Shown piece after piece: positions 22,429-36,850 of a stretch of 64,000 nt of DNA. Every line of letters begins with the position of its first letter. The first letter of the stretch is position 1. The notes beneath the pieces were generated by a model that saw nothing but the letters and a program-made list of their open reading frames with translations, made no database searches and was not told the DNA's origin. A program made the translations under genes and the position numbers. This DNA comes from an uncultured Planctomycetaceae bacterium (lineage in GTDB: Bacteria > Planctomycetota > Planctomycetia > Planctomycetales > Planctomycetaceae): positions 32,001 through 96,000 of the forward strand of contig CAWFGE010000008.1 in NCBI GenBank assembly GCA_963815195.1, written 5' to 3'.

Positions 22429-23699
22429 ATGGATCACGAGGTTCAGCCCGCCGACCATGAAATCGCCAGCTTACCGGGGGAAGCAAATCGTGATTGGGCC
22501 AACCGCACGGTCGTTGGGGCGGGGTTCACCAGCGCGTTTGGGGATTTTGCCTACGAAACGACGAGTGTGATCTTGCCAGGGTTTCTGGCAGTGCTTGGCA
22601 TCCCGGCAGCGTTTCTCGGTGTGATCGAAGGAATTGCCGATGCGGTGATGAGCTTCACAAAGCTCGCAGCCGGACACATCGCCAACCGGGTTGGCCATCG
22701 AAAGGCTTTGGTAGTCGCAGGATACGCCCTGACTCCGGTTGGTCAGGTTCTGATTGCGCTTTCGCATGGGTGGGCGCTCGTCCTCATCGGCCGGTCCGTC
22801 AGTTGGTTCGGAAAGGGGCTTCGCGGGCCGCTGCGGGACACGATCATGGCTGAAGCCATTACTCCCGCCACACGGGGGCGAGCATTCGGGTTTCACCGAA
22901 TGATGGATACGGTCGGGGCCGTCCTCGGCCCATCGTTGGGCGTCGTCCTGCTGGCCTATTTCCAGTCATGGCAACCGAGCGATGCGGCGTTTCCATTCCG
23001 GCTCGTCTTCTGGATGACCCTGATTCCCGGTCTGCTCTCTGCACTGGTATCCTCCTGGTGCGGGACGATCAGAGCCTGCCCAACCGCACGCTTTCATTCA
23101 TGTCGTCAATTCGCGGGCTGCCCAGCCGATTCCGAAGGTATCTCGTGGCCGCCGGCATCTTCGGATTCGGAGACTTCTCGCATGCCTTGCTAATCCTCGC
23201 TGCAACCCAGGTTCTGACTCCCGCGTATGGCGTTGTCCGTGCCGCTCAAATCGCCGGAGCACTGTACGTTCTTCGCAACGTGGTCCAGGCGTTTTCTTCG
23301 TATCCCATCGGAGCAGCCGCCGACCGGTATGGGCACCACTCCGTCCTATTGGCAGGCTACATGCTCGGTGTAGCGACAGCGATCAGTGCCGCCCTTCTGT
23401 TTGCCACGGGTAGCACGAGCCTGATGCAACTTTCAGTGGTGTTTGTCATCGCCGGCCTGTATGTCGCCGTGCAAGAAGCGATCGAACCCTCGCTCACGGC
23501 TGAGTTCGTGTCAGGCGAATCGCGAAGTGTCAGCTTCGGCCTACTGGGGGCCGTGAACGGATTCGGCAAACTGATCTCAAGCACCGGCGTCGGACTCCTC
23601 TGGACAGCGGTCTCTCCCATTGTCGCTTTCAGCACTGCCGCAGTGCTGATGTTGCTCGGGACCGCCGCCTTGGCGTTTGCAACAATCACAAACCGTTGA
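22429..23699 (+). CDS. MFS transporter (frameshift near 23050)
   Basis: GKGLRGPLRD..RGRAFGFHRMMDTVGA in the first frame; C-terminal half in ORF 22968-23699. Confidence 0.85.
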
Positions 23700-23747
23700 G
23701 CCGTAATCATCATTTTGAACTGGGCTTACCGCCATCCGGCCGTCCCT

Positions 23748-23810
23748 GCAAACCGGCTTCCCAGCCCAGGATGCCGGCCAGAAAAGTTCCATTGCCGTTT
23801 TGTCGTCCCG
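23748..23810 (+). repeat. Direct repeat copy A flanking the AbiE module
   Basis: GCAAACCGGCTTCCCAGCCC (20 nt identical) plus ~43 nt similar to 25762-25825. Confidence 0.85.
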
Positions 23811-23898
23811 GTTACGTTGCAGTCGCATTGCATTCATGTTGCGGTGGTGTTGATCTCTCGATGGATCGATTACCGGAAACGAACTGTCGCAAGGATGG

Positions 23899-24942
23899 TT
23901 ATCCGATGGCTTCGTTGATTTCGGCCTCGATCCGGCGCAGCACTTCAATCAACCGCTCGAATTCCGGTGGTTCGCCGAAGATCATTTCCTGCATCTTGCG
24001 GTAATCCTGCTCCAGTTCCGGCAGGCGAGCATCGGGTGGCACGAGCCGCAGCGTTCCCGGCTTGGCATCCGCGTACCGTGCCCATGCCGCCGGGAAGAAC
24101 ACTTCCTTGTGCCGGGCGACCTTCAGCAGCAGTTCGATATCCTTGATCGCGGCCTTACCCAGGTCGTGCTCATACAGGCGAACCACGTCGTAGTAGTGCC
24201 GCGACTGCCGATCCCGGAACTACTTGTTCACAGGGGCATGATGCCACATATGAAGCGCCGTGGCCTTCTCCCAAAAGGTTCGTTCGGCAGCCAGCACGCG
24301 GACTTTGCACCCGGCCTCCTTGAAGACTTTGGGAAAATCCACCGCCGCGTAGGACGTGACCATTGCTTCAATCGCGGGCCAGTGGTCTGAACGTGCTCCA
24401 ATCTCCATCCGCACGGTTGACCGGATGTAGGCCGGTTCGTTGGCGGCGCGGTCGCGTTCTTCGGTCGGGTAGCTGAACAGCAGGGTTTGACTGTCCGGGT
24501 CGTCGTTGGCCAATTCCAGCCCCCAAGACGCCGAAGGTGGTTCACCCAAGGCATTGCCGAAGGACTCGGTGAGTTGCGGCAACAACTTCTCCTGGATCAC
24601 CCGCTGGCATGTTTCCGTCAGCGCTTCCAAGCCATGCTTCCGTTTCTTGCCCGAGGTGGCGTTGAGCGGATCGCTGTCGCCGCCGAAGCCCAACCCGACC
24701 CCGTCGAAGGAAAGATCCACATCCTCCGAGAAACGCTCGATGATGCCGAACACTTTCGACAGCGATGTGCCGCCCTTAAACAGCAACCCGGCGGGCGGAT
24801 CAGGCAGCGTGAACAGACGCTTGAGCGCCCAGCAGACCCAGAAATCCTTTTCGATGATCGCTGGTGTCAGCCCTCGCTGTCGAGCGACTTCAGCAAACAG
24901 GTCAGCCCGGTCGGTGAGAGGGAGCCGTGCAATGTCATCCAT
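23899..24942 (-). pseudogene. AbiEii/AbiGii nucleotidyltransferase toxin with in-frame TAG at 24220-24222
   Basis: IEKDFWV, FKGGTSLSK, RFSEDVDL, ERTFWEK, then K*FRDRQSRHYYD continuing in the same frame. Confidence 0.88.
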
Positions 24943-25564
24943 GTCCGGCTGCCTCCATTTCCTCCTGGGCGATTTGGCGGACGGCAGACGCGATCCAGTC
25001 CGTCGTATAGCGGGCATCCTGGAGCAGACTCCGCCGCTGATCCGGCGACAGGGCACGACGAATCTGGCCGATTACCTTGTCGTTCACGGCAGCCTGCCCA
25101 AGATGCCGCAGGGCCTGGAAGACCATTGCGCTGGTCCGGCTCCCCACCGGCAGTTCTTTTGGGGCCGCATGGCGAATCTGAATCGTCGTGTTGCCGATTT
25201 TGACCTGACGGGTCCGCCCATCACTCAGGTAGACGGGCTTGGCAGGGACCTGCGTGGACAACCCCAGCCGGTTGGCGGCGACTGCACCCGAAGGGACAAC
25301 CCGGCTGCCTGTTTGCCGAGCAAGTGCGTCGGCGATCTCATCCAGATCGGGGCCGAGTGGGATACCCAGCCGCTGGTTCATCTGCGGATAATGGTAGAGG
25401 CCGCGCCCAAGCCGCAGAATGTCGCCGTTCCTGACCAGCCGGGAAAGCGACTGATCGGTAGCATCGCGGCTGCCCAGATCGAGGAAATCCTTCGGAATGA
25501 AGACCTTTCCCCGCCCCTGCTGGCGAATCCGGTCCAGAATTGTGTCTTGTACGGTCGTGGTCAT
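24935..25564 (-). CDS. AbiEi-type antitoxin (DUF6088-like)
   Basis: DFLDLGSRDATDQSLSRL..RLGRGLY, AANRLGLSTQVP; overlaps toxin start. Confidence 0.88.
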   Translation of the reverse strand: MTTTVQDTILDRIRQQGRGKVFIPKDFLDLGSRDATDQSLSRLVRNGDILRLGRGLYHYPQMNQRLGIPLGPDLDEIADALARQTGSRVVPSGAVAANRLGLSTQVPAKPVYLSDGRTRQVKIGNTTIQIRHAAPKELPVGSRTSAMVFQALRHLGQAAVNDKVIGQIRRALSPDQRRSLLQDARYTTDWIASAVRQIAQEEMEAAGHG

Positions 25565-25761
25565 GGGCTTGGCTCCTGTCAGAAAAGTGTACTCGAATTT
25601 CTGACAGAAGACAAGAGACTTCAGGGGGTGATTTCCGAATAGACTGCGGGCGATCGGCCCCAAGCCGTGTGCCTGTTCGGAAAATGCCGGAAAAACAATG
25701 GCCTACGCCGCGACCCGCAACCCTCACTCTGGCTTCGGCTTACTGCCCTTAAATTGCCGCC

Positions 25762-25825
25762 GCAAACCGGCTTCCCAGCCCCGGACGCCGACGAAAAAAA
25801 GTTCAATAGCCGTCTTGTCGCCCCG
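25762..25825 (+). repeat. Direct repeat copy B flanking the AbiE module
   Basis: Matches 23748-23810. Confidence 0.85.
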
Positions 25826-25943
25826 ACTATCCGTAAGACGGGCCAAACCAACGACTTGTGTACCTGCCGGCGGTCGGCAGCGTGGCCTGAAAACCGAAGA
25901 GAAATCCGGTACATACCGGATTTGGTTTCCAGGAGCTGCGCCA

Positions 25944-26295
25944 ATGCCAAAACCCGCCCGTCGCGTGCCCACGTACCGCAAGCACAAGCCCAGCGGTCAA
26001 GCCGTCGTCACCCTTTGCGGGACCGACTTCTATCTCGGCCCTCACAATTCCCAGACCTCCATCAACGAATATGACCGCCTCATCGCCGAATGGCTCTCCA
26101 ATGGCCGCGGAATGGCGAGCGGAGAACTGCTGGAATCCCAACCAACTCCGGCACAACGCCGCGACGAAGGCCCGCAAGGAATCGGGCTTGGAGACGGCCC
26201 AAATCATTTGCGGGCATTCCCAAGCCGACGTGACGCAGATCTACGCCGAAGTCGATCGGCAGAAGGCCATCCGTTATATGGCCCTGCACGGTTAA
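25944..26295 (+). pseudogene. Tyrosine integrase, internally deleted
   Basis: N-terminus VPTYRKHKPSGQAVVTL..FYLG..YDRLIAEW joined out of frame to C-terminal WNPNQLRHNAAT...GH...TQIYAE; only 352 bp in total. Confidence 0.88.
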
Positions 26296-26416
26296 TCCCC
26301 GTATCATTTTAACCGCCGGGTAGTGGTTGATCCCCACGTGGTCGGTGGCGTTCGATGGCTTTCCTTTCTTGGCCCGAACGCCCCGGCCGCCCGGCCCAAA
26401 AAGAAAGGAACAAGCG

Positions 26417-28016
26417 ATGAATTCTCGCACCATTAAATGCAACTCGCGGACTGTACCGATTAGATTGCCTTATAAAAATGGTGATGAGCTCCTAAATGTT
26501 TGGGCGATCGAAGCGGATTTTGGAATCAAACCCGGAACATTCGATACTCGGCAGGCGAATGGCTGGCCCCATCTTGGTAGTCGCCGCGCAATGGCTCACC
26601 AGCGGGAAATTTCACCTGCGAACGGACGATCGGGACCGCAGAATTTCCATTCGCGTCGAGAAATTGAATGTCTCACCAATGACTCGGGAGCGGCACGACA
26701 GACAATCCATTCCGACGCGCCCTTGGTTGTTCCGATCGGATGTAAGAATCCCCGCGAGGCGGCAAGAGCCAGAATCATTACTCTTCCAAATGGGAACGAC
26801 GGTTTGAATGCCGCTGCCATCTGCGCAGTACGGCATCTCCTATCACGTTTTCCGTTATCACCAGCGTAAAGCCGGTTGGCCGGCGAATGACGGTTTGCCG
26901 ATCGATGGGTACGAATATGAGGTTTCAACACTCACGGGAAAGCCTACTCAGGAATTCTTTGACCGTGCCGACATAGAACGCTTCGTTGTTCCTTATATAA
27001 AAGCACGACAGTTGCCAAAAAATGGGACCAAAAGACAAAGTCCCAGGATTCATACAGAAGCTGATGGAACCAGAACTTTCAATTACACAGCGGCCCTCGA
27101 CGCGTTCAATCGAAACCACACGCTGTTTAACAAATTGATCGAGGCGGGAAAACTAACGCCGATGGAGCGAAAATCCCCGCTGACAGGGCTTCCCGAAATC
27201 GCCTTCCCGGAAAGCCAGATTAAAACGTGCCAAGAGGAAGTCGGCTACAACAAACGGTCCAGACGGCAAGTTGATCGAACGTGGTACATCGACTTCAAGC
27301 GAGCCGTGAACGAGCTACCGGGCATCACCGCGAATATGCTTAGAACGCTCGGCGAGCGTAACCGGTTCCTTAATGAAGCCGGCATTCCGCATCTCACCAT
27401 TTCCGGAAAAACTTGGTGGTGTGAAGATGCCATAAAGCGCACTCGCGATGCAATTATCTCCATACAAAATGAGGCCCCACCCGAAAAATGGAAAGTCGCT
27501 CGCGAATTGGCGAAGTGTGAGATTGACGAATCGCATCGGCAGACTCTTCCGAATGCCATTCGGAACGGCGGTTCGCAGTTGGATGCGATTCGCCATTTAC
27601 TGACGAATGCGCAACATGAGGGGACCCTTATTGAGGGAAGGGATTTTTGGATTCCGAAATTGCCCGTGGTGATGCCCAACGGGCAACGCCAATATCCCAT
27701 TTACTATGATCCCGAAACCGTCATCCCTTGGCTTCGGAGCGAGCCGCTGGCGGACACGGAAACGCCGGCGACGCAGAATAAACCGGCGGACGAATTTGTC
27801 CCGTCAGACACGCAGCGGGAAATCCTGGAATCGCTCGATGGCGTGGCAAAGACCGCTGATGAATTGATGGACGCTCTTGATGTTTCGCGGCACAAACTTT
27901 TCGGGCGGCGAGACGGCAAAGGCGGACTGAAAGAACTGATGTCCTGGGGCATGATCGAAAATGTTTCCGGGATTCGCGGGTATTATCGCCCCGACCGACC
28001 ACCCAGCGCGCACTAA
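26417..28016 (+). CDS. Putative DNA-binding/regulatory protein with repeated HTH-like units and C-terminal winged helix (probably one frameshifted gene; main ORF 26808-28016)
   Basis: Similar motif GI....F...Q..GWP in both ORF pieces; C-terminal TQREILESL..KTADEL..L..SR..L...GLKEL...GYYRP. Confidence 0.5.
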
Positions 28017-28062
28017 ATCGCGAATCGCGCGCACTAAAAAAGCGCACCAAAGTGGCACTGAA
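28008..28062 (+). promoter_or_regulatory. Cluster of GCACTAAA-like direct repeats upstream of DUF1580 gene
   Basis: GCGCACTAAA (28008, 28029), GCGCACCAAA (28042), GGCACTGAA (28054). Confidence 0.55.
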
Positions 28063-28134
28063 TTCTCAGCTTTCCGCCCCCACAATCCTTGCAGTTCATG
28101 GCACTTTTGCCCCTGAAGCTGTGAGGATTTTTTT

Positions 28135-28419
28135 ATGACGATTGATCTGGAACGAGACCGACTGACGTTGACCGAAGCCGCTCAACTGCTGGCCAAGGAC
28201 CTCTCCACGATCTGGCGATGGTGCCTGCGTGGGGTCCGCGGCCGCAAGCTGGCGAGCTTCGTCATTGGCGGCCGCCGGTACGTGTACCGCGATGATCTGG
28301 ACGATTTTCTCGCCGCGCAAAATGCCGACGATCCGCGGCCGGCCCAGCCGACGCAAAAATCGAAACGCCGCAACGCAGCGGCCGCGAAGAAACTTGATGC
28401 GCTCGGGATTGGCACGTAA
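28135..28419 (+). CDS. DUF1580-like HTH protein (excisionase/AlpA-like)
   Basis: LTLTEAAQLL..STIWRWCLRGVRGRKL...IGGRRY....LDDF. Confidence 0.8.
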   Translation: MTIDLERDRLTLTEAAQLLAKDLSTIWRWCLRGVRGRKLASFVIGGRRYVYRDDLDDFLAAQNADDPRPAQPTQKSKRRNAAAAKKLDALGIGT

Positions 28420-28563
28420 AAAAGGCCCGCCGGCGTTGTGCCCACCGACGGGCCGGAGCTGCGCCCACCTGCCACGGTGGGGAACACTGCCATCCTATGC
28501 CCCGTCGCGCCCCCAAACAATCCCAACGCCGCCGCGGGTCTCCATTGGAATGGAGGCTTTATT

Positions 28564-29530
28564 GTGAACGAACCCCAAGCGGAGCCAAGAGGTTATCCGC
28601 AACGCGATTCCCATTTCGCTCACCGGTTTACGCGGCTGTTGACCAAGACGGCCGCGGCCCAAGAAATCGGGCCGGAAGGCACATGGATGTTGACAGTCAT
28701 CGTGCATCAGGAAGACGCCAAGCGATACAAAGGCGCTGTCACATTCTACAACACCCAACTGATGCCTCTGTGCGGCATCGGGAGCGATCGGCGGCTTTTT
28801 CAGGTGCGCGACCGGTTAGTCGAAGCCGGTTGGCTTCACTACGAAGCCGGGGCGAAACGCCGGCCGGGGAAATACTGGGTATTGGTTCCTGACGATTTGA
28901 GCGATGCGTCGGATGCGCCGGTCGATGAACGGCACGAATTTTTCTCCTGCGAATCGCAGGAGAAAGCGAAGAGAAACCGTAGGGAAAGCGAAGAGAAAGC
29001 GAAGACTAACCGAAGAGAAGGTGCGCGCCCTTCTACCCTAGATCCTAACCCTGCCCCTAATCCCGAAGAGAGGGGTTCCCCCGCCCTCGATGGCGCTCAT
29101 TCCGGAATTGATGAAAAAGTTCAATTCGGTTTCGGGAGTCACAAAATGCACCGCTTTCTCGGGGAAGCGCCGCACGGCTCTGAGTGCGAGGCTACGGGAT
29201 GCGATTTTTCGCGACCGATGGCCCGAGGCAATCGAGCGAATGGCCGAGTCCCACTTCTGCCGCGGGGAGAATGATCGGGGCTGGAAAGCCGATATGGATT
29301 GGTTTTTGAAACCGGATTCCGTGCTGAAGCTGCTTGAAGGCAAATACGCCCCATCACCAATCGCAACGAACAGAATCGACGAAAAATTCAGGGATGGCCC
29401 GGCGGGGAGTACCGCCGGCAATGCGGAAAGTGTGCCCTTTTCGAGTTTTAGGAGAAAGACAAGTGATAGCCACCAACGAAACTCCAGCGACTGGAGAGCG
29501 CGCGAACTTGAGCAGGCCTGCGAGGGCTAA
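28564..29530 (+). CDS. Phage-type replication initiator (frameshift near 29080)
   Basis: GTG with GGAGG RBS; N-terminal wHTH; internal iterons; C-terminal FCRGENDRGWKADMDWFLKPDSVLKLLEGKY typical of phage replisome organisers. Confidence 0.78.
28960..29020 (+). repeat. 11-bp tandem iterons inside rep gene (putative origin)
   Basis: GAGAAAGCGAA/GAGAAACCGTA/GGGAAAGCGAA/GAGAAAGCGAA/GACTAACCGAA/GAGAAG. Confidence 0.75.
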
Positions 29531-30107
29531 ATCTCTATTGGCTCAAATCGTCAAAGCCCTCGAACCGCTGCAGCTCAATTGCCAGCCGCCGAAGGATTCC
29601 GCCGCACTTCGGAGTTATGCCGAAGTGCTGCTTTTCGACGATCCGGAATTGTCACCCGATTTGATTCGCAAGGCCGCGATGCGCTATCTGCGGCAATCGG
29701 AAGAGAACTGGTTTCCCCCGGCCGGTTTGTTATTGAAGATTGCAAAAGAACTTGCAGACGGGGAACTTCCCGAATGGCAACAGACTTGGCATCGGGTCAT
29801 GGACGCCTGCCGAATGTGGGACCAATACGATACAAAAAAGGCGATCGCCGCCCGCCAGCATATCGGCGAAACCCTGTATGAATTTGTGCGAATGCTTGGG
29901 GGGTTCATCGCTCTGACCTCAGTAGATTCCGATACGCTTTCGGTGTTGCAATCGAATTTCCGGAACGCATTTACCGCGGAGCGAAAGCGTGCGGAACGCA
30001 ATCGAGCGCTCCCGGATTCGTTGCGGCCCGTCCCGGCCAAATTGGAAACTCCGCAATCCTCGATTCAAAATATCGAAGTTTTGGAACGGGGAGATTCCGA
30101 TGCCTAA
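29463..30107 (+). CDS. Helicase loader/inhibitor-like protein (G39P-like)
   Basis: Directly after rep; AAMRYLRQSEENWFPPAG..L..IA, W..V..A, V..LGGF..L, FRNAF pattern. Confidence 0.6.
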   Translation: MIATNETPATGERANLSRPARAKSLLAQIVKALEPLQLNCQPPKDSAALRSYAEVLLFDDPELSPDLIRKAAMRYLRQSEENWFPPAGLLLKIAKELADGELPEWQQTWHRVMDACRMWDQYDTKKAIAARQHIGETLYEFVRMLGGFIALTSVDSDTLSVLQSNFRNAFTAERKRAERNRALPDSLRPVPAKLETPQSSIQNIEVLERGDSDA

Positions 30108-30465
30108 ACAACTCGAACTATTCGCGGAACCCGCTGCAAAGAAACCGGTAGGCCAATCCCTGCCGCACAACGGAACCGACACAAGCCGGGATGCGGCCGA
30201 ATCCATCGCGCCCGTTGTCAACGAATTGGCACGCGGCGTTTATGATTTCATCAAAAGCCGCGGGCCGTTCGGGGCCACCGATGAAGAACAGCAAATGAAC
30301 TTGGGGATTCCCGGAAACACGCAGCGCCCGCGCCGCAATCGGTTGGAAGCCGCCGGGCTGATTCGTCGGTCGGGCGACAAACGGGCAACGGCATCGGGCC
30401 GGATGGCCCACGTTTGGGTTGCGAGCGATTTAATAAGCGCATCTTCCGCCAAGGATTCGTTTTAG
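30100..30465 (+). CDS. Phage winged-helix DNA-binding protein
   Basis: TSRDAAES, GATDEE, RPRRNRL...GLI..SG..R.T.SGR.A.VW. Confidence 0.72.
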   Translation: MPKQLELFAEPAAKKPVGQSLPHNGTDTSRDAAESIAPVVNELARGVYDFIKSRGPFGATDEEQQMNLGIPGNTQRPRRNRLEAAGLIRRSGDKRATASGRMAHVWVASDLISASSAKDSF

Positions 30466-30609
30466 GGCGAATTTGGAAAAAAACCGATCGAAACAAACTC
30501 TGTATTCTATTTGAGGTACTTCTCGCCCAGTCTCGATCCTTGGCGTGGCGGGGAAGAACCTATGAGGATCCCGACCTTTCCCGCATCATGGAAGCATGGC
30601 CCACGGAAT

Positions 30610-30816
30610 ATGAATCTGGAATATCTCATCGACATGGCCGGCCAGATGTGGCGCGGCCCGATCAATCCCGGGGGCAATTTGCATTGGGAACGCTTCGAAG
30701 GCCGGAACCCGGACGGCTCGGAGATCTGGCGTCTCTGCCGGGAACGGCCGCCGCTGAGCGGCAGCCGCATTCCCGCGACTGATGCCCGGCGGTTGATTGC
30801 CGGGACCGCGAAATAA
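30610..30816 (+). CDS. Hypothetical protein
   Basis: Short ORF co-oriented in the phage-like operon. Confidence 0.4.
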   Translation: MNLEYLIDMAGQMWRGPINPGGNLHWERFEGRNPDGSEIWRLCRERPPLSGSRIPATDARRLIAGTAK

Positions 30817-30905
30817 TAGTAGTGATTCACCCGTCGGCGGGGTTGTACAATCTGCAAACGAAAGCCGCGGGCCATGAAAGGCCAACATCAAACGAGGATG
30901 CACGG

Positions 30906-31139
30906 ATGCACGACAATCAATTTGAGCAATTCGGCCATCTGCTCACCGAAGCAATGTCGATCGCGAAGCTCGCCGGATACTTCAAGGTGAATCGGGCGAC
31001 GATGGCTTCCGTCCTTCAACACATGGAGGGCGTCGAGCGCTTCGGCTCGAAGTTTCAAATCCCCGTCCGCCGAATGCCCCTGCGATATTTCATCGATGCC
31101 CATCTGCTAAAACCGAACGAAATTGACCGTTTCGGTTGA
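30906..31139 (+). CDS. Small HTH-like protein
   Basis: MSIAKLAGYFKVNRATM helix-turn-helix pattern. Confidence 0.55.
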   Translation: MHDNQFEQFGHLLTEAMSIAKLAGYFKVNRATMASVLQHMEGVERFGSKFQIPVRRMPLRYFIDAHLLKPNEIDRFG

Positions 31140-31192
31140 GGATTGCAAAACCAGGCTTCGCGATTCGCTTCCCCATCTATAGGGTTTCAATC

Positions 31193-31399
31193 ATGTCGAG
31201 TCTCATCGATCAACAATTCGCCGCAGACCTTCTCGCGATTTCCGTTCGTCGTCTCGCGAAGATGGTCCGCGACGGCGAGCTCCCCTTCATTGAACTGCCG
31301 GGGGGCGAGATCAGATTCAGCCGAGAGGATTTGCAAGATTGGATCGGAACCCGAAAGCGTGGAATTGAGGATGGAAACAACCTACTCGCAAGGGTTTAG
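31193..31399 (+). CDS. HTH_17 excisionase-like DNA-binding protein
   Basis: AADLLAISVRRLAKMVRDGELP...GGEIRFSREDLQDWI. Confidence 0.8.
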   Translation: MSSLIDQQFAADLLAISVRRLAKMVRDGELPFIELPGGEIRFSREDLQDWIGTRKRGIEDGNNLLARV

Positions 31400-31429
31400 G
31401 ATGAACGGGCCGGTCGGCCCGGTCGGGGA

Positions 31430-31490
31430 CGCCCGCGGGTCCTTCCCAGGCCCCCGCCGGGGCGCGCGGGTCCACACCGGCGCGTTTTTT
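31430..31490 (+). other. Putative cos packaging site (lambda cosQ-like GGGTCCT)
   Basis: Intergenic CGCGGGTCCTTCC (GGGTCCT at 31437-31443), downstream CGCGGGT, located just before the capsid gene. Confidence 0.5.
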
Positions 31491-31544
31491 GTCAATAACA
31501 GAGCGTTTTTCCGGGGTTCTTCTTCTTAACATACGGATTTACAG

Positions 31545-31592
31545 TGGGGGGCTTCGGGGGTTCGTCCCACATCAGCCTTCCGAAGCCCCCCA
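31545..31592. repeat. Perfect 13-bp inverted repeat upstream of capsid gene
   Basis: TGGGGGGCTTCGG ... CCGAAGCCCCCCA. Confidence 0.8.
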
Positions 31593-31632
31593 ATTTTGAT
31601 TCGGCGGATTCCGCCTGAAAGGATTCTGGAAC

Positions 31633-32940
31633 ATGCCCGCAACCACGCCGATCCGCGTCTCCGAAAGCGAACGCGAAAAGTTTTACGCCGCCGCTCGCGA
31701 TGCGTTCCTGATGCGTTCGCTGCGAACGGCGGGTCTCGATCCGAACAGAGGGCTGCAAGCTGCCCAAGCCGGCGGCGATTTCGACGCCATTAAACGCTGC
31801 CAGCACTTGGTGACGACCTTCCAAAAGCCCGCGGCCGGTCACGAGGATTTCAGGCATGTTTCCATGATCGACCTGGCCCGGATGTTCCTGGAAAAAGCCG
31901 GCGATCGCATTCCCGCGGGAATGCCGGGCGGGGCAATCGCGCAGCGGGCCATCCAGATGGGCCGCTTTGTGGAGATCAACCAATGGATGCAGCGCGACGC
32001 AGGCGCGTTTAACACCGTTGGAAGCTTTCCGAATCTGATGCTCGACGCCGCGAATAAAACGCTGCTCGCCGGATACGATGAGTCCCCGTTTACGTACACG
32101 CTTTGGGTGAGACAGGCCCCATCCGCCGCGGACTACAAGGAACTGAACCGCGTTCGGTTCGGCGAGATGCCGGACCCCGAGGCGATTCCCGAAAACGCGC
32201 CCTATCCTGAAAAACAAACCTCGGATGCCCGCTAACATTACCGCGTCGAAAAATATGGCGAGATGTTTTCGGTTTCGTTGGAGGCCATCGTCAATGATGA
32301 CCTGAACGCCATCTCGCGGATTCCTGCCATGCAGGGCGTCGCGATGCGGCGGAAAATCAACAAGGTTTGCTATCAGATTTTGACGGCGAACCCAGCGCTC
32401 TCGGATGGGATTTCGCTTTTCCATTTGACATCCCACGGGGCCAACCTGGACGCGAACGCATTAAGCAAGACGGCCCTTGATACCGGGTTCACGGTGATGG
32501 AAACCCAGACCGGCCTGAGTGGGGCCGGCACGGTTCTCGGCATCCGCCCGCGGTATCTCATCGTACCGTCGGCACTCGCGGCCACGGCCTACACGCTGAC
32601 GGCCTCCATGTCCGACCCCAGCCAAGCCAGCGCCAGCAACGAAGATGCCAGCCGGCCGGCATTCAGCGCAGGCGTCCGCAACCCTTACGGCCCCGGCGGG
32701 CCGCGGCCGTTGATGAGCGTACCCGAGCCGCAACTGGACGACACCAGCGCGACCCAATGGTTTCTTGCGGCCGACGCGTCCCAAATCGATACGGTGGAAA
32801 TCACGTTCCTTCGCGGGGAGGAAGCGCCGGTACTTCAGCGCGAGGAAGAATTCGCAACCGACGCCCTGAAATACAAAATCCGTCAGTCCTTCGCGGCCGC
32901 CGCGATCGATTTCCGCGGACTTTATCAAGGCAACGGCTAA
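31633..32940 (+). pseudogene. Major capsid protein (Mu gpT-like family) with in-frame TAA at 32233-32235
   Basis: SFPNLMLDAANKTLLAGY, KYGEMFSVSLEAIVNDDLNAISRIP, ANPALSDG..LFH, IRPRYLIVP, WFLAAD..QIDTVEITFL.GEEAP, AAAIDFRGLY; both ORFs share a frame. Confidence 0.88.
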
Positions 32941-32997
32941 CGGCTAGAGCCTCGAAATTCCTTCAGCCCCGAACCTCTTTCCAACAACGGCTTGAAT

Positions 32998-33699
32998 ATG
33001 ACCACCACATTAGAACGCATCGAGGAAGCCGAGCTGCGAGCCGGCGGGGATCTGGAACAACTCATTCTGGACGAAGCCCAAGGCGTGGAACGCGATCCCG
33101 AGGAAGCCCGGAGAATCCTTTTTTCGGCCGGCTGCTCGATCGAGGAGTTCAAAATTCTCGCGGGACGCAAACGCCAACGCGTGGCCGATGCCGAACTGGT
33201 CGCATCGGCCGATGGCCTCCTAAAAAACGCCATCGAACAAGAGCAACTCCGGGACCGCCTCATTGCCGAGCGGGACGCAAAACTCCAAAAAATTCACCGG
33301 GACTACGCGAAGCAGTTGGCCGACATCGAACACGACACGGCCAACGCCCAGGTTTTGGAGGCGCAACGCCGGCAAGCCGTCCGCCGGCTCGTCGGCACGG
33401 CTCCTGCGCCACTCCAGCGCGAAGAAGAGGCGCTCGCGGCCCGGATTCGCCGGCATCGCGTGACGATGGAAAATGCCCGCGAAGACTCGAATCTCCGGCG
33501 GCACGACATCCATTTGCTCTCCGCCCGTCTGGATCAAACCCCCCGCGGCGGCCCGCAAGCGAAAAACACACAAGCGGAACTCGATGCGGCCCGCGAGAGA
33601 TTGCGAAAGTCCGAATCGAATGTTTCCCGCCTCGACGCCGAACGCGAAAACCTCAACTCCGAAATGGATGAAATCCAACGGCGGAAACTGAACCCCTGA
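32998..33699 (+). CDS. Coiled-coil hypothetical protein
   Basis: Charged helical 233-aa ORF directly after the capsid gene. Confidence 0.65.
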   Translation: MTTTLERIEEAELRAGGDLEQLILDEAQGVERDPEEARRILFSAGCSIEEFKILAGRKRQRVADAELVASADGLLKNAIEQEQLRDRLIAERDAKLQKIHRDYAKQLADIEHDTANAQVLEAQRRQAVRRLVGTAPAPLQREEEALAARIRRHRVTMENAREDSNLRRHDIHLLSARLDQTPRGGPQAKNTQAELDAARERLRKSESNVSRLDAERENLNSEMDEIQRRKLNP

Positions 33700-34019
33700 T
33701 GTTCGCAAATGGCGAGTTGATTATCCGAACGCACATGGGCAACGGGCTGTTGACGCCCGGCATGCCCCCGCGGATCGGGTTTGAAGTCCGCTATCCCGGT
33801 ACGACGATCCGAGGCTATCTCGCCGATTCCCTGCAGCGCGAGGTTTACAAATTCCTCCGGCGGGAAAACCTCACCGGATCCGCGATCTTGCGGAGCGGCG
33901 ATTTGTACCTTGACGCCGGAACTCGCGAGGAACTCGCGGCGCTTCGGACCTTGATTGAATTATCCCTTCGGGAAGGCGATGGCCGCGCGATCGTCTCCGA
34001 AGAATTGATGACGCGTTGA
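33699..34019 (+). CDS. Hypothetical protein
   Basis: TGATG coupling with upstream gene. Confidence 0.6.
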   Translation: MFANGELIIRTHMGNGLLTPGMPPRIGFEVRYPGTTIRGYLADSLQREVYKFLRRENLTGSAILRSGDLYLDAGTREELAALRTLIELSLREGDGRAIVSEELMTR

Positions 34020-34088
34020 AGCGGCGGCCGCCGCGCGTTCCCGGCGGCGTAGCCGGGGAACGGGCCGGCGGTCTGAAAGGCGATCGCG

Positions 34089-34364
34089 ATGAGTTTTGAA
34101 TCCAACTACAGCGACGAAGTTGCGGCGAGCATCGAGCAACTGGGGGCCCAGCTTGCCCGGCTGAAAGCCGAAGAACGGCTGGCCCGGCAAATCGAACGCC
34201 CGGCAAACATCGGCGTTTTGGCCGACGCCCTCCGCCGGGACATGGCCCGGCTCGGCTGCGCGACGCTGGAAGAATACATCGAAGCGCGGATGGGGATTGC
34301 CGAAGTTTCGTTGCGGCCGGCCCTCCCGCCCATATCGGGGCCGTTCATCGCGATTTTGCTTTGA
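34089..34364 (+). CDS. Hypothetical protein
   Basis: ATG preceded by GAAAGG; helical 91-aa ORF. Confidence 0.55.
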   Translation: MSFESNYSDEVAASIEQLGAQLARLKAEERLARQIERPANIGVLADALRRDMARLGCATLEEYIEARMGIAEVSLRPALPPISGPFIAILL

Positions 34365-34389
34365 TTCTCACCGGCGGAACGGATTCCGA

Positions 34390-35076
34390 ATGCACTTCCT
34401 GATTTTCATTCCCGCCGCCGACACGCCCGCGGAGACGCCGACGCAGGCCCTCGAGCGCGTCGGGCTGGCCGACTTCATCCCAGGTCACGAAGGCATGGCC
34501 CACGCCGGCCCGAAGTCGCCCGATGACGTGGCACGCCCCGGAACCCTCATCGCCTGGCGGCGGCCGGGCAAAAACGACCGGATGCACGTGCAACCGAAAG
34601 AGCAAACTTGGATTCCCGCCTTGCCGAACGGTCCCGACGGCGAAGGCCGCGGCCGGTATCTTGTCGGGTTTTGGAACGATTCGCCGCCGACGCCCGATGA
34701 CCTCTTGCTGCCCCATGCCGATTGGGGCGAAAGCGTTGAACTCAACGATGGGAACCGGTGGGCGTTTCCCCAGGTGCAAAAATTCACCCGCGAACTTATC
34801 CGCGGGGAGAATGGCCAATGGCAGGCGCACGTCATGGAACGCCATCAGCGCTGCTTCTTTCAAGCCAACATCTGGCTGGAGATGATCCAAGACGATAAAC
34901 CGTTCGCGATGGCGGAACTGGCGGATTTCGTCGAGGAAACTTTGAAGCTCAACTACAGGCTGACGCCGGAAATCGCGAGTCATTTGCGGCTGTTCGACAC
35001 GAACAACATCCTAGAGGCACTCGCGGCGATTCTTAACTGTTCGATCGGTTTGAAAGGGGAATCGCGTGACGAATAA
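34390..35076 (+). CDS. Hypothetical phage protein, possibly tail assembly chaperone-like
   Basis: Precedes a tape-measure-like stub; LKLNYRLTPEIASHLRLF C-terminus; function inferred from position only. Confidence 0.45.
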   Translation: MHFLIFIPAADTPAETPTQALERVGLADFIPGHEGMAHAGPKSPDDVARPGTLIAWRRPGKNDRMHVQPKEQTWIPALPNGPDGEGRGRYLVGFWNDSPPTPDDLLLPHADWGESVELNDGNRWAFPQVQKFTRELIRGENGQWQAHVMERHQRCFFQANIWLEMIQDDKPFAMAELADFVEETLKLNYRLTPEIASHLRLFDTNNILEALAAILNCSIGLKGESRDE

Positions 35077-35170
35077 CATCTCCATAGAACTCGCGGCCGA
35101 TGACAAGTCGGTTCAGTCGGCGCTCGATAGAATGGGCAGCAACATCGACAAGGCCGCCAACCGCCGTTGA
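35066..35170 (+). pseudogene. Tape-measure-protein-like N-terminal stub
   Basis: GTG start overlapping upstream stop; MTNNISIELAADDKSVQSALDRMGSNIDKAANRR*. Confidence 0.4.
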
Positions 35171-35448
35171 CACGGGACCGGCGGCTTATTGTTAAGGTCA
35201 CTCCATGAAGAGGCCGTCTGCTTGCTTTCCTTCGCGAGGCCCAATGATTCGGAGCAAATCGTCCGCTTTTGCTGTCGTACTCACGTGCTTTGTGTAGCGT
35301 TTCAGATCGACAAGCTCTTCTTGCGTTTGTTCCTCGCCCCAGTCGGTGCAGCGATGCTTCCGACTGGCGGGAGGTCAAACTCAAAGTTATTCTGATACAG
35401 CACATTTGCGATTGTTTGGATCAGAGATTTTTGAAAGACCCAACCAAA

Positions 35449-36850
35449 ATGAACCGCTTCTCTCTTTCATGCTTCATCGTTTTCGCATTCGTCCAGGCGG
35501 GACTTGCCAAAGATGTTCGGCCCAATGTCCTGTTCATTGCGGTGGACGATATGCGGCCTGAGTTGGGTTGCTACGGGAAAAGCGAGATCAAGTCGCCGAA
35601 CATTGATCGCCTCGCGAAAAGCGGGATCGTCTTCGAGCGGGCGTACTGCATGGTGCCGACCTGCGGCGCGTCCCGCGCGAGTTTGATGACGGGGATTCGC
35701 CCCGCCCGCAGTCGGTTCATCAATTATCTGGCCTGGGCCGAGAAGGATGCTCCCGGGATCACCACGTTGAATACGCAGTTCAAACAGAACGGGTATTATA
35801 CGGTTTCGTTGGGCAAGGTGTTTCACCATCCCACGGACAATGCAAAGGGCTGGTCGGAACCGGCCTGGCGGCCCCAAGGGATTCCGTGGTATCGCCGACC
35901 CGAAAACCAGAAGTTGCATCAGGAGCGGCAACGGCAAGCACAGCGGAAACGGGGACCGGCCTGGGAAGCAGCGGACGTGGCGGACAATGCCTATGCCGAC
36001 GGCGTACTCGCCGACCGAGACCGTCGCCGACCTAGGGCGGCTCTCATCAAAAGAGCAGCCTTTCTTTCTCGCCGTGGGCTTTTTCAAGCCGCATTTGCCG
36101 TTCATCGCGCCTCAGAAATACTGGGATTTGTACGATCACGATAAGATTCATCTGCCCGAGACCTACCATGCTCCCAAGAATGCCCCGAAGGAGTCGCTTC
36201 ACAACTCCGGCGAGTTGCGGGCTTATGCGGGCATTCCTGCGAAAGGTCCGGTCTCGGATGAGACAGCCCGCAATTTGATCCACGCGTATTATGCCTGCGT
36301 CAGCTACACCGACGCCCAAATCGGCAAGCTGCTCGATGAACTCGACCGCTTAGGAATTGCCGAGAATACCCTTGTCGTCTTGTGGGGCGATCACGGCTGG
36401 AACCTCGGCGAGCACATGCTGTGGTGCAAGCACTGCTGCTACGAAACCTCGATGCACGCTCCGTTGATTGTGAAAGCCCCGAGCATCCAGGGCGGCAAAA
36501 CCACCAAAGGACTGACGGAATTCATCGACATCTATCCCTCGCTCTGCGAATTGGCGGGCTTGCCCCTTCCCGAGCATCTGCAGGGCCAGAGTTTTGTGCC
36601 GCTATTGAAGAAACCCGGTCAACGATGGAAAGCCGCCGCCGTGGGGCGATTTCAGAACGGCGACACAATTCGCACCGAACGCTTCCGCTTTACGGAGTAC
36701 ACGAATCCCAAAGGGAACCCTCTGGCGCGAATGCTTTACGACCACATGCTCGATCCCGGCGAAGATGAGAACGTCTCCGAAACCCGCCTTGAAACCGCCA
36801 CGCAATTGACCAAACAACTCCATGAACTGAAGGGCCGGGACGCGAAGTGA
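35449..36850 (+). CDS. Sulfatase (iduronate-2-sulfatase-like), frameshift near 36012
   Basis: Signal peptide, RPNVLFIAVDDMRP, CGASRAS, GKVFH, KPHLPF, WGDHGW. Confidence 0.92.

Follow-up and report, generated by a model that had tools for sequence, protein, structure and literature searches.

The 64,000-nucleotide window analysed here (G000:C8:32001-96000) belongs to contig 8 of an uncultured Planctomycetaceae bacterium, whose genome assembly, G000, comprises 8.87 Mb in 25 contigs and is 94.6% complete. Positions 25813-35170 of its forward strand are occupied by an element that is probably a damaged copy of a satellite resembling the phage-inducible chromosomal islands (PICIs), which would be packaged by a lambda-like helper phage and would add a capsid protein of its own to the head of that phage. 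The element comprises an integrase remnant, regulators, a replicon, a trimmed capsid gene, a coiled-coil gene and a tail assembly chaperone (TAC) gene followed by the start of a tape measure protein (TMP) gene, with a cos-like site among them (Table 1). An earlier, sequence-only reading of the window had listed an integrase remnant, DUF1580 and helix-turn-helix (HTH) genes, an initiator with iterons, a loader and a capsid gene, and all of these lie on the forward strand where it had placed them. It had also seen no terminase, portal, protease or lysis gene, and none of the 19 open reading frames (ORFs) of the element that were scanned with Pfam and PHROG families matched such a family. Compact copies recur, capsid-only proteins are constrained and full phages have another gene in the place behind the capsid, which together speak for a lineage of the satellite type and against a single deletion event.

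The capsid-only gene and an intact relative

Alignment identifies the capsid gene with the C-terminal portion of a fusion of protease, scaffold and capsid, about 730 residues long, that lambda-like planctomycete phages encode. It matches the C-terminal part of the phrog_4523/phrog_133 fusions, begins about 290 residues into the fusion P0005 and is 70-74% identical to the nearest phage fusions, the entire protease and scaffold part being gone. The gene has a start of its own, with AAAGGA 9 nt before the ATG, in agreement with the stand-alone gene and ribosome-binding site of the sequence-only reading. Fusions are the usual form of this family. Across 401 genomes of the phylum, 42 of the 45 capsid matches found beyond G000 belong to open frames of at least 653 aa, and the 171 capsid loci fetched from viral, metagenome and genome data, a partly redundant set, comprise 147 fusions, 22 loci cut by a contig end, one split fusion and one capsid-only gene (L076). 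A protein search, in which 8,000 candidates were scored, gave 549 passing matches; the best 120 of these include 103 proteins of at least 697 aa, 12 fragments or N-truncated sequences and five whole capsid-only proteins (P0004 at 78%, P0006 at 72%, P0044, P0052 and P0067), whose initial methionine falls at the same position as that of the capsid studied here. Capsid-only proteins are the best and the third-best of these 120 matches. P0006 and P0067 lie on contigs of 14,727 and 14,322 nt. One capsid homologue is named from Thalassoglobus, which, like the presence of DUF1580, lends indirect support to the planctomycete assignment.

A quick IQ-TREE tree was built from 74 rows (this capsid, the top 72 matches covering at least 330 residues, and P0117), with the Shimodaira-Hasegawa-like approximate likelihood ratio test (SH-aLRT) as its measure of support. 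In this tree the capsid forms a clade with P0004 and P0006 (SH-aLRT 100) inside a clade supported at 98 that contains the fusions P0005, P0007 and P0008. P0044 with P0052, and P0067, fall away from the P0004/P0006 clade, so that trimming probably occurred more than once. The sequence-only reading had asked whether satellite-type capsids form a clade apart from full prophages; they do not, but occupy at least two places among the phages. Selection was assessed on two sets of alignment columns, 280 that vary and 99 that are conserved in 90% or more of the 59 fusions. Compared with a near fusion, the capsid-only proteins differ at 1-6 of the conserved and 67-146 of the variable columns; compared with one another, this capsid, P0004 and P0006 differ at 4 of 99 and 73-75 of 280, respectively, which indicates that selection continued on them as capsid-only genes after trimming. 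These observations suggest how proteins such as Ccm, the capsid homologue of the staphylococcal satellite SaPIbov5, may originate, namely by recent capture of a helper fusion gene and precise loss of its protease and scaffold parts, apparently more than once.

The context of such a gene can be read on L076, a sequence of 8,813 nt with a 164-nt end overlap that closes to 8,649 bp. The joint appears in contigs of three of four sequencing runs, one of which is possibly its source, and a circle and a tandem repeat fit the data equally. L076 encodes an intact integrase, small regulators, a primase-polymerase/helicase, the capsid-only protein P0044, a 254-aa coiled coil and a 67-aa ORF, so that the pairing of a capsid-only gene with a coiled coil recurs there; a tRNA-His 3' half, recognised by eye, follows the integrase as its attachment (att) site. 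Gene calls and profile scans of L076 gave no terminase, portal or tail gene. The sequence-only reading would have been refuted by closest relatives that are full prophages, with terminase and portal between cos and capsid, and by a lack of other compact copies; this did not prove to be the case, as capsid-only proteins recur and L076 is compact.

Two candidates for further capsid-only genes were rejected: the 490-aa open frame of G394:C501 is a contig-edge fragment, and L071, which has portal and terL, is a fusion that has been split. At L053:8790-11942 a distant PF25209 gene is also capsid-only, and its contig shows no portal upstream of it; the helical protein of 376 aa that comes next is outside the coiled-coil family, and L053 was not counted.

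The coiled-coil family, the cos-like site and the tail genes

The gene after the capsid encodes the first member of an unnamed family, modelled by AlphaFold as five helices with a predicted local distance difference test score of 97. It is 44% identical to P0002, whose contig equals in size that of the capsid-only protein P0004 (4,146 nt), and weakly similar to the 254-aa protein of L076 (E 8e-4). A profile of three sequences retrieved 59 representatives, mostly of 218-260 aa, with near full-length matches. A profile of the N-terminal part found no member in 85 distinct fusion-capsid (full-phage) loci with at least 1 kb downstream, and it gave the expected match in seven of eight comparison loci added as a control; in full-phage loci the capsid is usually followed by a protein of about 220 aa instead. 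Searched for at E<=1e-9, the family turned up in 46 of the 351 class genomes, G000 included. Members are carried by the complete genomes G452, G503, G534 and G554, among others. The wider count of 129 among the 401 phylum genomes, obtained at E<=0.001, was rejected as mostly generic, and of the 18 loci fetched from that search seven (L266, L268-L270, L277, L279 and L281) are without element context.

Members of the family sit mostly in small integrative elements. Twenty of the 46 class loci were fetched, chosen for long contigs, and 19 gave gene calls; 91 of their 131 same-strand neighbours were scanned, 40 host-like genes or small regulators being omitted, and 23 were rescanned with Pfam. A named primase or helicase occurs in 13 of the 19 neighbourhoods, a lone head protease in five, a tape measure in four, a large terminase in two and a recognised capsid in none, figures to be read with the limited sensitivity of the scan, in which PHROGs missed three of four control genes of the phage L083 and Pfam found both portal controls. 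A portal-like match lies about 7 kb away in one of the 20 loci. The elements L323, L317, L265 and L280 are intact and have integrase, HTH and coiled-coil families in common with the element; the integrases of L323, L317 and L265 belong to the same family as its own. L265, L273 and L280, which came from the search of the phylum, combine integrase, replicon, terS and coiled coil, with short TMP-like genes in L273 and L280, and L273 carries terS, coiled coil, TAC and the short TMP-like gene together.

The fetched loci held several further arrangements. Lone prohead proteases lie next to or near the coiled coil at L311:7857-8651, L313:8557-9393, L314:8595-9443, L316:8362-9105 and L326:10456-11910, that of L311 corresponding to the protease portion of the very fusion family from which the element has the capsid portion. 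A large terminase (L324:10199-11686, L325:10995-12473) accompanies a coiled coil and a 900-aa TMP-like gene in two loci with no recognised capsid or portal, and two coiled-coil copies are found per element in L316, L317, L323 and L276, reminiscent of the sid/psu duplication of P4.

Since members often lie beside capsid, protease or terS genes, it can be put forward tentatively that the coiled coil helps to assemble heads, for instance as a scaffold that is external or stands in for another, although such a role is rather doubtful. Searches with the model by VIA-align gave generic helical hairpins only (best Z 12.5); searches with the profile found only generic coiled coils among PDB sequences, no consistent PHROG, and nothing above 0.79 in the Atlas. 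No sequence or fold match to the size-determining proteins Sid and TcaP was found; they are not among the listed fold matches, a listing that does not exclude them.

The sequence-only reading had pointed to a GGGTCCT site similar to cosQ. It is present, and presumably resembles cosQ of lambda. The loose pattern GGGTCCT-N15-40-CGCGGG is non-significant by itself (one found, 0.27 expected, reached in 24 of 100 shuffles), and support for the prediction comes instead from related copies: the one at C7:94770 is 75% identical along 92 nt, a further one lies at C8:277974, and another stands ahead of the packaging genes in the full phage L083. Within 3.5 kb upstream of terL, GGGTCCT occurs in just two of 11 full-phage loci. 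The C7 and C8 copies belong to two minimal elements of G000 (L001, at C7:~89800-94900 and located at tRNA-Thr, and C8:272800-278050), each with integrase, small HTH protein, DnaB-N/DUF3987 protein and cos-like site. They have no structural gene, and their cos-like motifs are near-identical to each other and to that of the element; we take them to resemble minimal satellites of the PICMI type.

Tail-related remnants had also been reported by the sequence-only reading. Tail genes are indeed there, but they look like a satellite module of TAC and TMP rather than mere debris. The TAC gene is intact, and its homologues directly precede a TMP-like gene of 333-589 aa in nine of 16 other loci. The start of the tape measure gene scores 14.3 bits against the TMP profile, compared with a maximum of 6.7 in 200 shuffles. 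One close TAC homologue and one coiled-coil family member lie on contigs of equal size (8,495 nt).

Proposed mechanism, alternatives and known satellites

In an intact copy of the proposed satellite, helper infection would trigger excision from the tRNA gene and replication would proceed from the iterons. The trimmed capsid protein would then co-assemble with helper subunits, portal and protease, with the coiled coil perhaps acting in head assembly; the terminase of the helper would cleave the DNA at the cos-like site, and the TAC/TMP pair would yield chimeric tails, as in the satellite PLE of Vibrio cholerae. If the element is a satellite, the odds lean slightly towards its capsid protein joining helper heads and shifting their size or specificity, by analogy with Ccm, which joins capsid pentamers in SaPIbov5 (PMC8569155; PMC5052747).

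Several observations weigh against this interpretation. The capsid homologue of EcCICFT073 is described as dispensable for interference, and the packaged DNA as phage-sized (PMC6092414). L076 has neither the GGGTCCT motif nor tail genes, and the cos and tail modules are therefore not general. Full fusions make up 103 of the best 120 capsid matches, gene context is readable for a single relative of this capsid-only family (L076), and P0004/P0002, P0052/P0182 and P0125/P0190 are paired solely through contigs of equal size. The coiled coil mostly occurs without a capsid gene, and in three loci (L324, L325 and L274) it has a large terminase as a neighbour; L274 is a counter-example, terL, HNH and a different capsid adjoining its coiled coil. 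A fold search of the coiled-coil model against PDB and BFVD gave no match at E<=0.001. Finally, the 94.6%-complete assembly holds no helper with this capsid type: terL or portal pieces (C10:468k, C12:1.107M, C8:409k, C14:121k) and capsid pieces (C16:10k, C12:652k) occur, none within a complete prophage. The co-resident prophage with the same cos that the sequence-only reading had suggested looking for was not found in this assembly either; its PICI-like satellite family draws support from L076, the recurring constrained capsid-only proteins and a gene after the capsid that differs from the one in full phages, and none from a cos-sharing helper.

An improbable alternative is that the element is a satellite or island whose trimmed capsid and coiled coil only sabotage incoming phage, by dominant-negative assembly or abortive defence, while it travels in unmodified helper heads via cos. 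A capsid without its scaffold and protease part could poison assembly, and the two minimal int-AlpA-DUF3987-cos elements of G000 carry the same cos motif without any capsid; EcCICFT073, moreover, travels in heads of full size despite its capsid homologue (PMC6092414). On the other hand, conserved columns are kept over the entire capsid, beyond what a poison would need, and a size of 8.6-9.4 kb fits the small-head packaging of other satellites (PMC5052747; PMC10085698). A chance deletion derivative of a lambda-like prophage, which has lost terminase-portal-protease, head-tail and most tail genes, would account for a gene order equal to that of a prophage, for a replicon that is lambdoid and not of the primase type, for the deleted integrase and cut-off TMP, and for closest fusions 70-74% identical to the capsid. 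Such an origin is already largely refuted and most improbable in view of trimming at the same residue in five other proteins under selection, of the complete circular relative L076, and of a gene after the capsid that is absent from all 85 phage loci, most of those listed having the ~220-aa protein there.

Portal-less genomes of 5-12 kb with HK97-fold capsids have been proposed to be helper-independent mini viruses, for which capsid and scaffold suffice to make particles (PMC13669383). L076 is of the same size class as these genomes, of about 8.75 kb, and like them has integrase, replicase, capsid and possible scaffold but no gene for terminase, portal or tail. The main group among them comes from the gut and is encapsulin-like, and the main text of the paper contains neither "planctomyc" nor PF25209, although its supplements might list such elements (PMC13669383). 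We consider this explanation very unlikely for the element, whose cos-like site and TAC/TMP genes would serve no purpose unless a helper supplied the other parts, whose capsid is nested among tailed-phage fusions in the tree and whose coiled-coil family mostly occurs without any capsid; the proposing paper itself leaves the idea untested and names satellites as an alternative (PMC13669383). The data on the element and L076 bear on the question of whether the portal-less genomes are satellites or independent viruses.

Several known systems resemble the element. The cos-type Staphylococcus aureus pathogenicity islands (SaPIs) such as SaPIbov5 likewise combine an integrase with regulators and a replicon. 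The predicted cos-like site has its counterpart in their cos site, which is similar to that of the helper; their capsid homologue, too, is shortened in its N-terminal scaffold region, and they are described as lacking a large terminase (PMC5052747; PMC8569155). Ccm is a distant homologue of the helper capsid, whereas the capsid studied here has kept 70-74% identity to phage fusions and lost the whole protease and scaffold part (PMC5052747; PMC8569155). The element further differs from SaPIbov5 in the unrelated coiled-coil gene and TAC/TMP after the capsid and in its planctomycete host, and is known here from its genes alone. EcCICFT073 and PmCI172 are also alike; at about 9.5 kb they combine an integrase and a capsid gene with an AlpA-like regulator and a module for replication, and have no portal or lysis gene in the accounts available (PMC6092414; PMC10085698); EcCICFT073 undergoes cos packaging by a lambda-like helper (PMC6092414). 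Compared with these Gram-negative PICIs, the element has no recognisable terS, a lambdoid initiator and loader in place of a primase (L076 has a primase-helicase) and a capsid of family PF25209. Capsid-forming PICIs, too, are small integrative elements with their own capsid gene (PMC10085698), but portal, large terminase, protease and head-tail connectors are absent from the ORFs of the element and from L076.

Measured against the PICI model of SatelliteFinder, the integrase (a remnant here, intact in L076) and a capsid morphogenesis gene (PF25209) are present and no terS was recognised; the relatives L265, L273 and L280 have it. The model also calls for an AlpA/MerR/Stl-type regulator, for which the HTH_17/DUF1580 gene is a candidate, and for a primase-replicase module with an origin, where the element has an O/DnaD-like initiator, iterons and a loader and L076 a primase-polymerase/helicase. 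The model forbids tail, portal and holin genes (PMC10085698); no portal or holin match was found, TAC and the TMP start are present, and L076 is free of all three. Since the element departs from the model twice (no terS; tail genes), it is not filed as a PICI member, though it would work like one. Its intact TAC gene and the 34 codons of its TMP gene recall PLE, a satellite with TAC and TMP genes of its own (PMC10945586; PMC12987554), which it uses for chimeric tails (PMC12987554). The coiled coil recalls Sid of P4 (244 aa), both being elongated, all-helical, of similar size and encoded among morphogenesis genes (PMC7552001). PLE and P4, as described, encode no capsid, unlike the element (PMC10945586; PMC7552001). 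No PLE or P4 core gene was recognised in the element, where no search was aimed at the other PLE core genes.

Satellites with capsid homologues and satellites with TAC/TMP are thus both already known. The present data add a marker protein, which 46 of the 351 class genomes carry and the related phages lack, together with a complete 8.6-kb example (L076). In a survey of satellites more than 99.9% of PICIs were in Proteobacteria or Firmicutes, and its available text never mentions planctomycetes (PMC10085698). The literature searched, which did not extend to subscription journals, yielded no planctomycete phage satellite with a capsid, only unrelated matches for planctomycete phage-inducible chromosomal islands, and no mention of the host group, of the repeatedly trimmed fusion capsid or of the coiled-coil family; related elements could be listed in the supplements of PMC13669383 and PMC10085698. 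A bolder and rather unlikely proposal is that the ~235-aa coiled coil marks a large, hitherto undescribed planctomycete satellite family and, as a scaffold that sets head size, is the third to have evolved independently. The satellites of this family would mix trimmed capsid, lone protease, terS, terL, TAC and short TMP, would have captured the helper fusion more than once, cut at the same residue, and would rebuild both head and tail of the helper.

Boundaries, replication genes and other elements of the genome

The left end of the element is a fragment of a tRNA-Pro 3' end, where homology to a tRNA-Pro-linked integrase copy on C7 also begins (25813-25830). The sequence-only reading had set the start close by, 77 nt later (25890). 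The 18-nt att core is otherwise present in the genome solely within two tRNA-Pro genes, and no right-hand copy was found anywhere in the genome with up to two mismatches allowed. At its right end the element stops 34 codons into the tape measure gene. Compared with its sister on C12, the integrase has lost about 950 nt internally, so that the N-terminal 55 codons adjoin the C-terminal end, and this copy of the element cannot excise by its own integrase.

The sequence-only reading called this copy decayed. The integrase deletion and the lost right end look like genuine damage, but the TAA in the capsid gene and the frameshift in the initiator, whose junction holds G4/C5 runs, may be assembly errors. 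Among 22 ordinary G000 genes alignable to relatives, five carry a frameshift or stop, which makes pseudogene calls in this assembly unreliable; the flanking AbiEii and sulfatase genes are likewise broken.

Table 1. Features of the element (window coordinates)
Feature	Position	Strand	Basis or remark
att-like core, 3' end of tRNA-Pro, left boundary	25813..25830	+	16 nt identical to tRNA-Pro 3' end on C20
Tyrosine integrase remnant	25944..26295	+	PF00589, E 1.4e-5, on 26071-26295
402-aa ORF in the usual regulator position	26808..28016	+	no Pfam/PHROG match; regulator role from position alone
HTH_17/DUF1580 excisionase-like regulator	28135..28419	+	E 5.6e-9 and 5.9e-9
Replication initiator, frameshift-split near 29060-29090	28564..29530	+	GTG start read from sequence
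Iterons, 11-mer x5.5, inside initiator gene	28960..29019	+	repeat search
P-like helicase loader	29463..30107	+	phrog_9804, E 1.8e-6; phrog_109 weak, E 0.021
121-aa protein	30100..30465	+	phrog_1123, E 1.9e-12
Two small ORFs, 68 and 77 aa, second weakly HTH-like	30610..31139	+	
HTH_17 small DNA-binding protein	31193..31399	+	E 7.9e-10
Predicted cos-like packaging site	31437..31530	+	common to C7:94770, C8:277974 and full phage L083
Capsid-only gene, 434 aa	31633..32940	+	PF25209, phrog_4523; TAA at 32233 (codon 201)
233-aa all-helical coiled-coil protein, first of an unnamed family	32998..33699	+	profile searches, AlphaFold model
Two ORFs, 106 and 91 aa	33699..34364	+	no family match; no homologue in fetched loci
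Tail assembly chaperone, 228 aa, intact	34390..35076	+	sole Foldseek match at E<=0.001, E 2.5e-4
Tape measure gene, first 34 codons	35066..35170	+	profile of 9 TMP N-termini

DUF1580 is typical of planctomycetes. The regulator with this domain matches HTH_17/DUF1580 and phrog_66, with a weak match to the MerR-like phrog_2474 (E 0.0026), and has homologues in L003, L323, L317 and L280. The replicon consists of an O/DnaD-like initiator, iterons and a loader, in the place of a primase-replicase module. The C-terminal part of the initiator matches DnaD-like and O-like PHROGs (phrog_10469, E 1.9e-18; phrog_345, E 2e-12). The iterons are likely the origin of replication, and we take their placement within the initiator gene to resemble that in lambda O. 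For a small terminase, the best match was that of the HTH_17 protein at 31193..31399 to the terS family phrog_57, with an E of 0.094. Promoter and terminator scans remained at chance level, and Rfam had no match across 23000-36000; an inverted repeat with 24-nt arms (79%), itself without an Rfam match, lies at 31534-31603, between the cos-like site and the capsid start.

Loader copies 55-66% identical to that of the element occur in two other elements of G000. One is L003 (C12:~519000-528600), at tRNA-Lys, where the integrase 5' region is 89%, the HTH protein 75% and the loader 55% identical. This sister shares the left arm but has a different, frameshifted late region, which suggests exchange of late modules; searches detected no capsid in it, though capsid-like stretches are visible across frames. 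The other, L005 (C13:1094000-1109000), has several integrases, an initiator, and a loader at 66% identity; its other strand carries a tape measure gene of 1,060 aa, and it has no capsid. The arm preceding the left end of the element recurs at window position ~23750 and at C8:103005, which places the element in a tandem array behind an AbiE module. In that module, at 23748-25830, an AbiEi/AbiEii pair with a split AbiEii is flanked by two copies of the att-arm repeat; it is a defence cassette of 2 kb that stands in tandem to the element.

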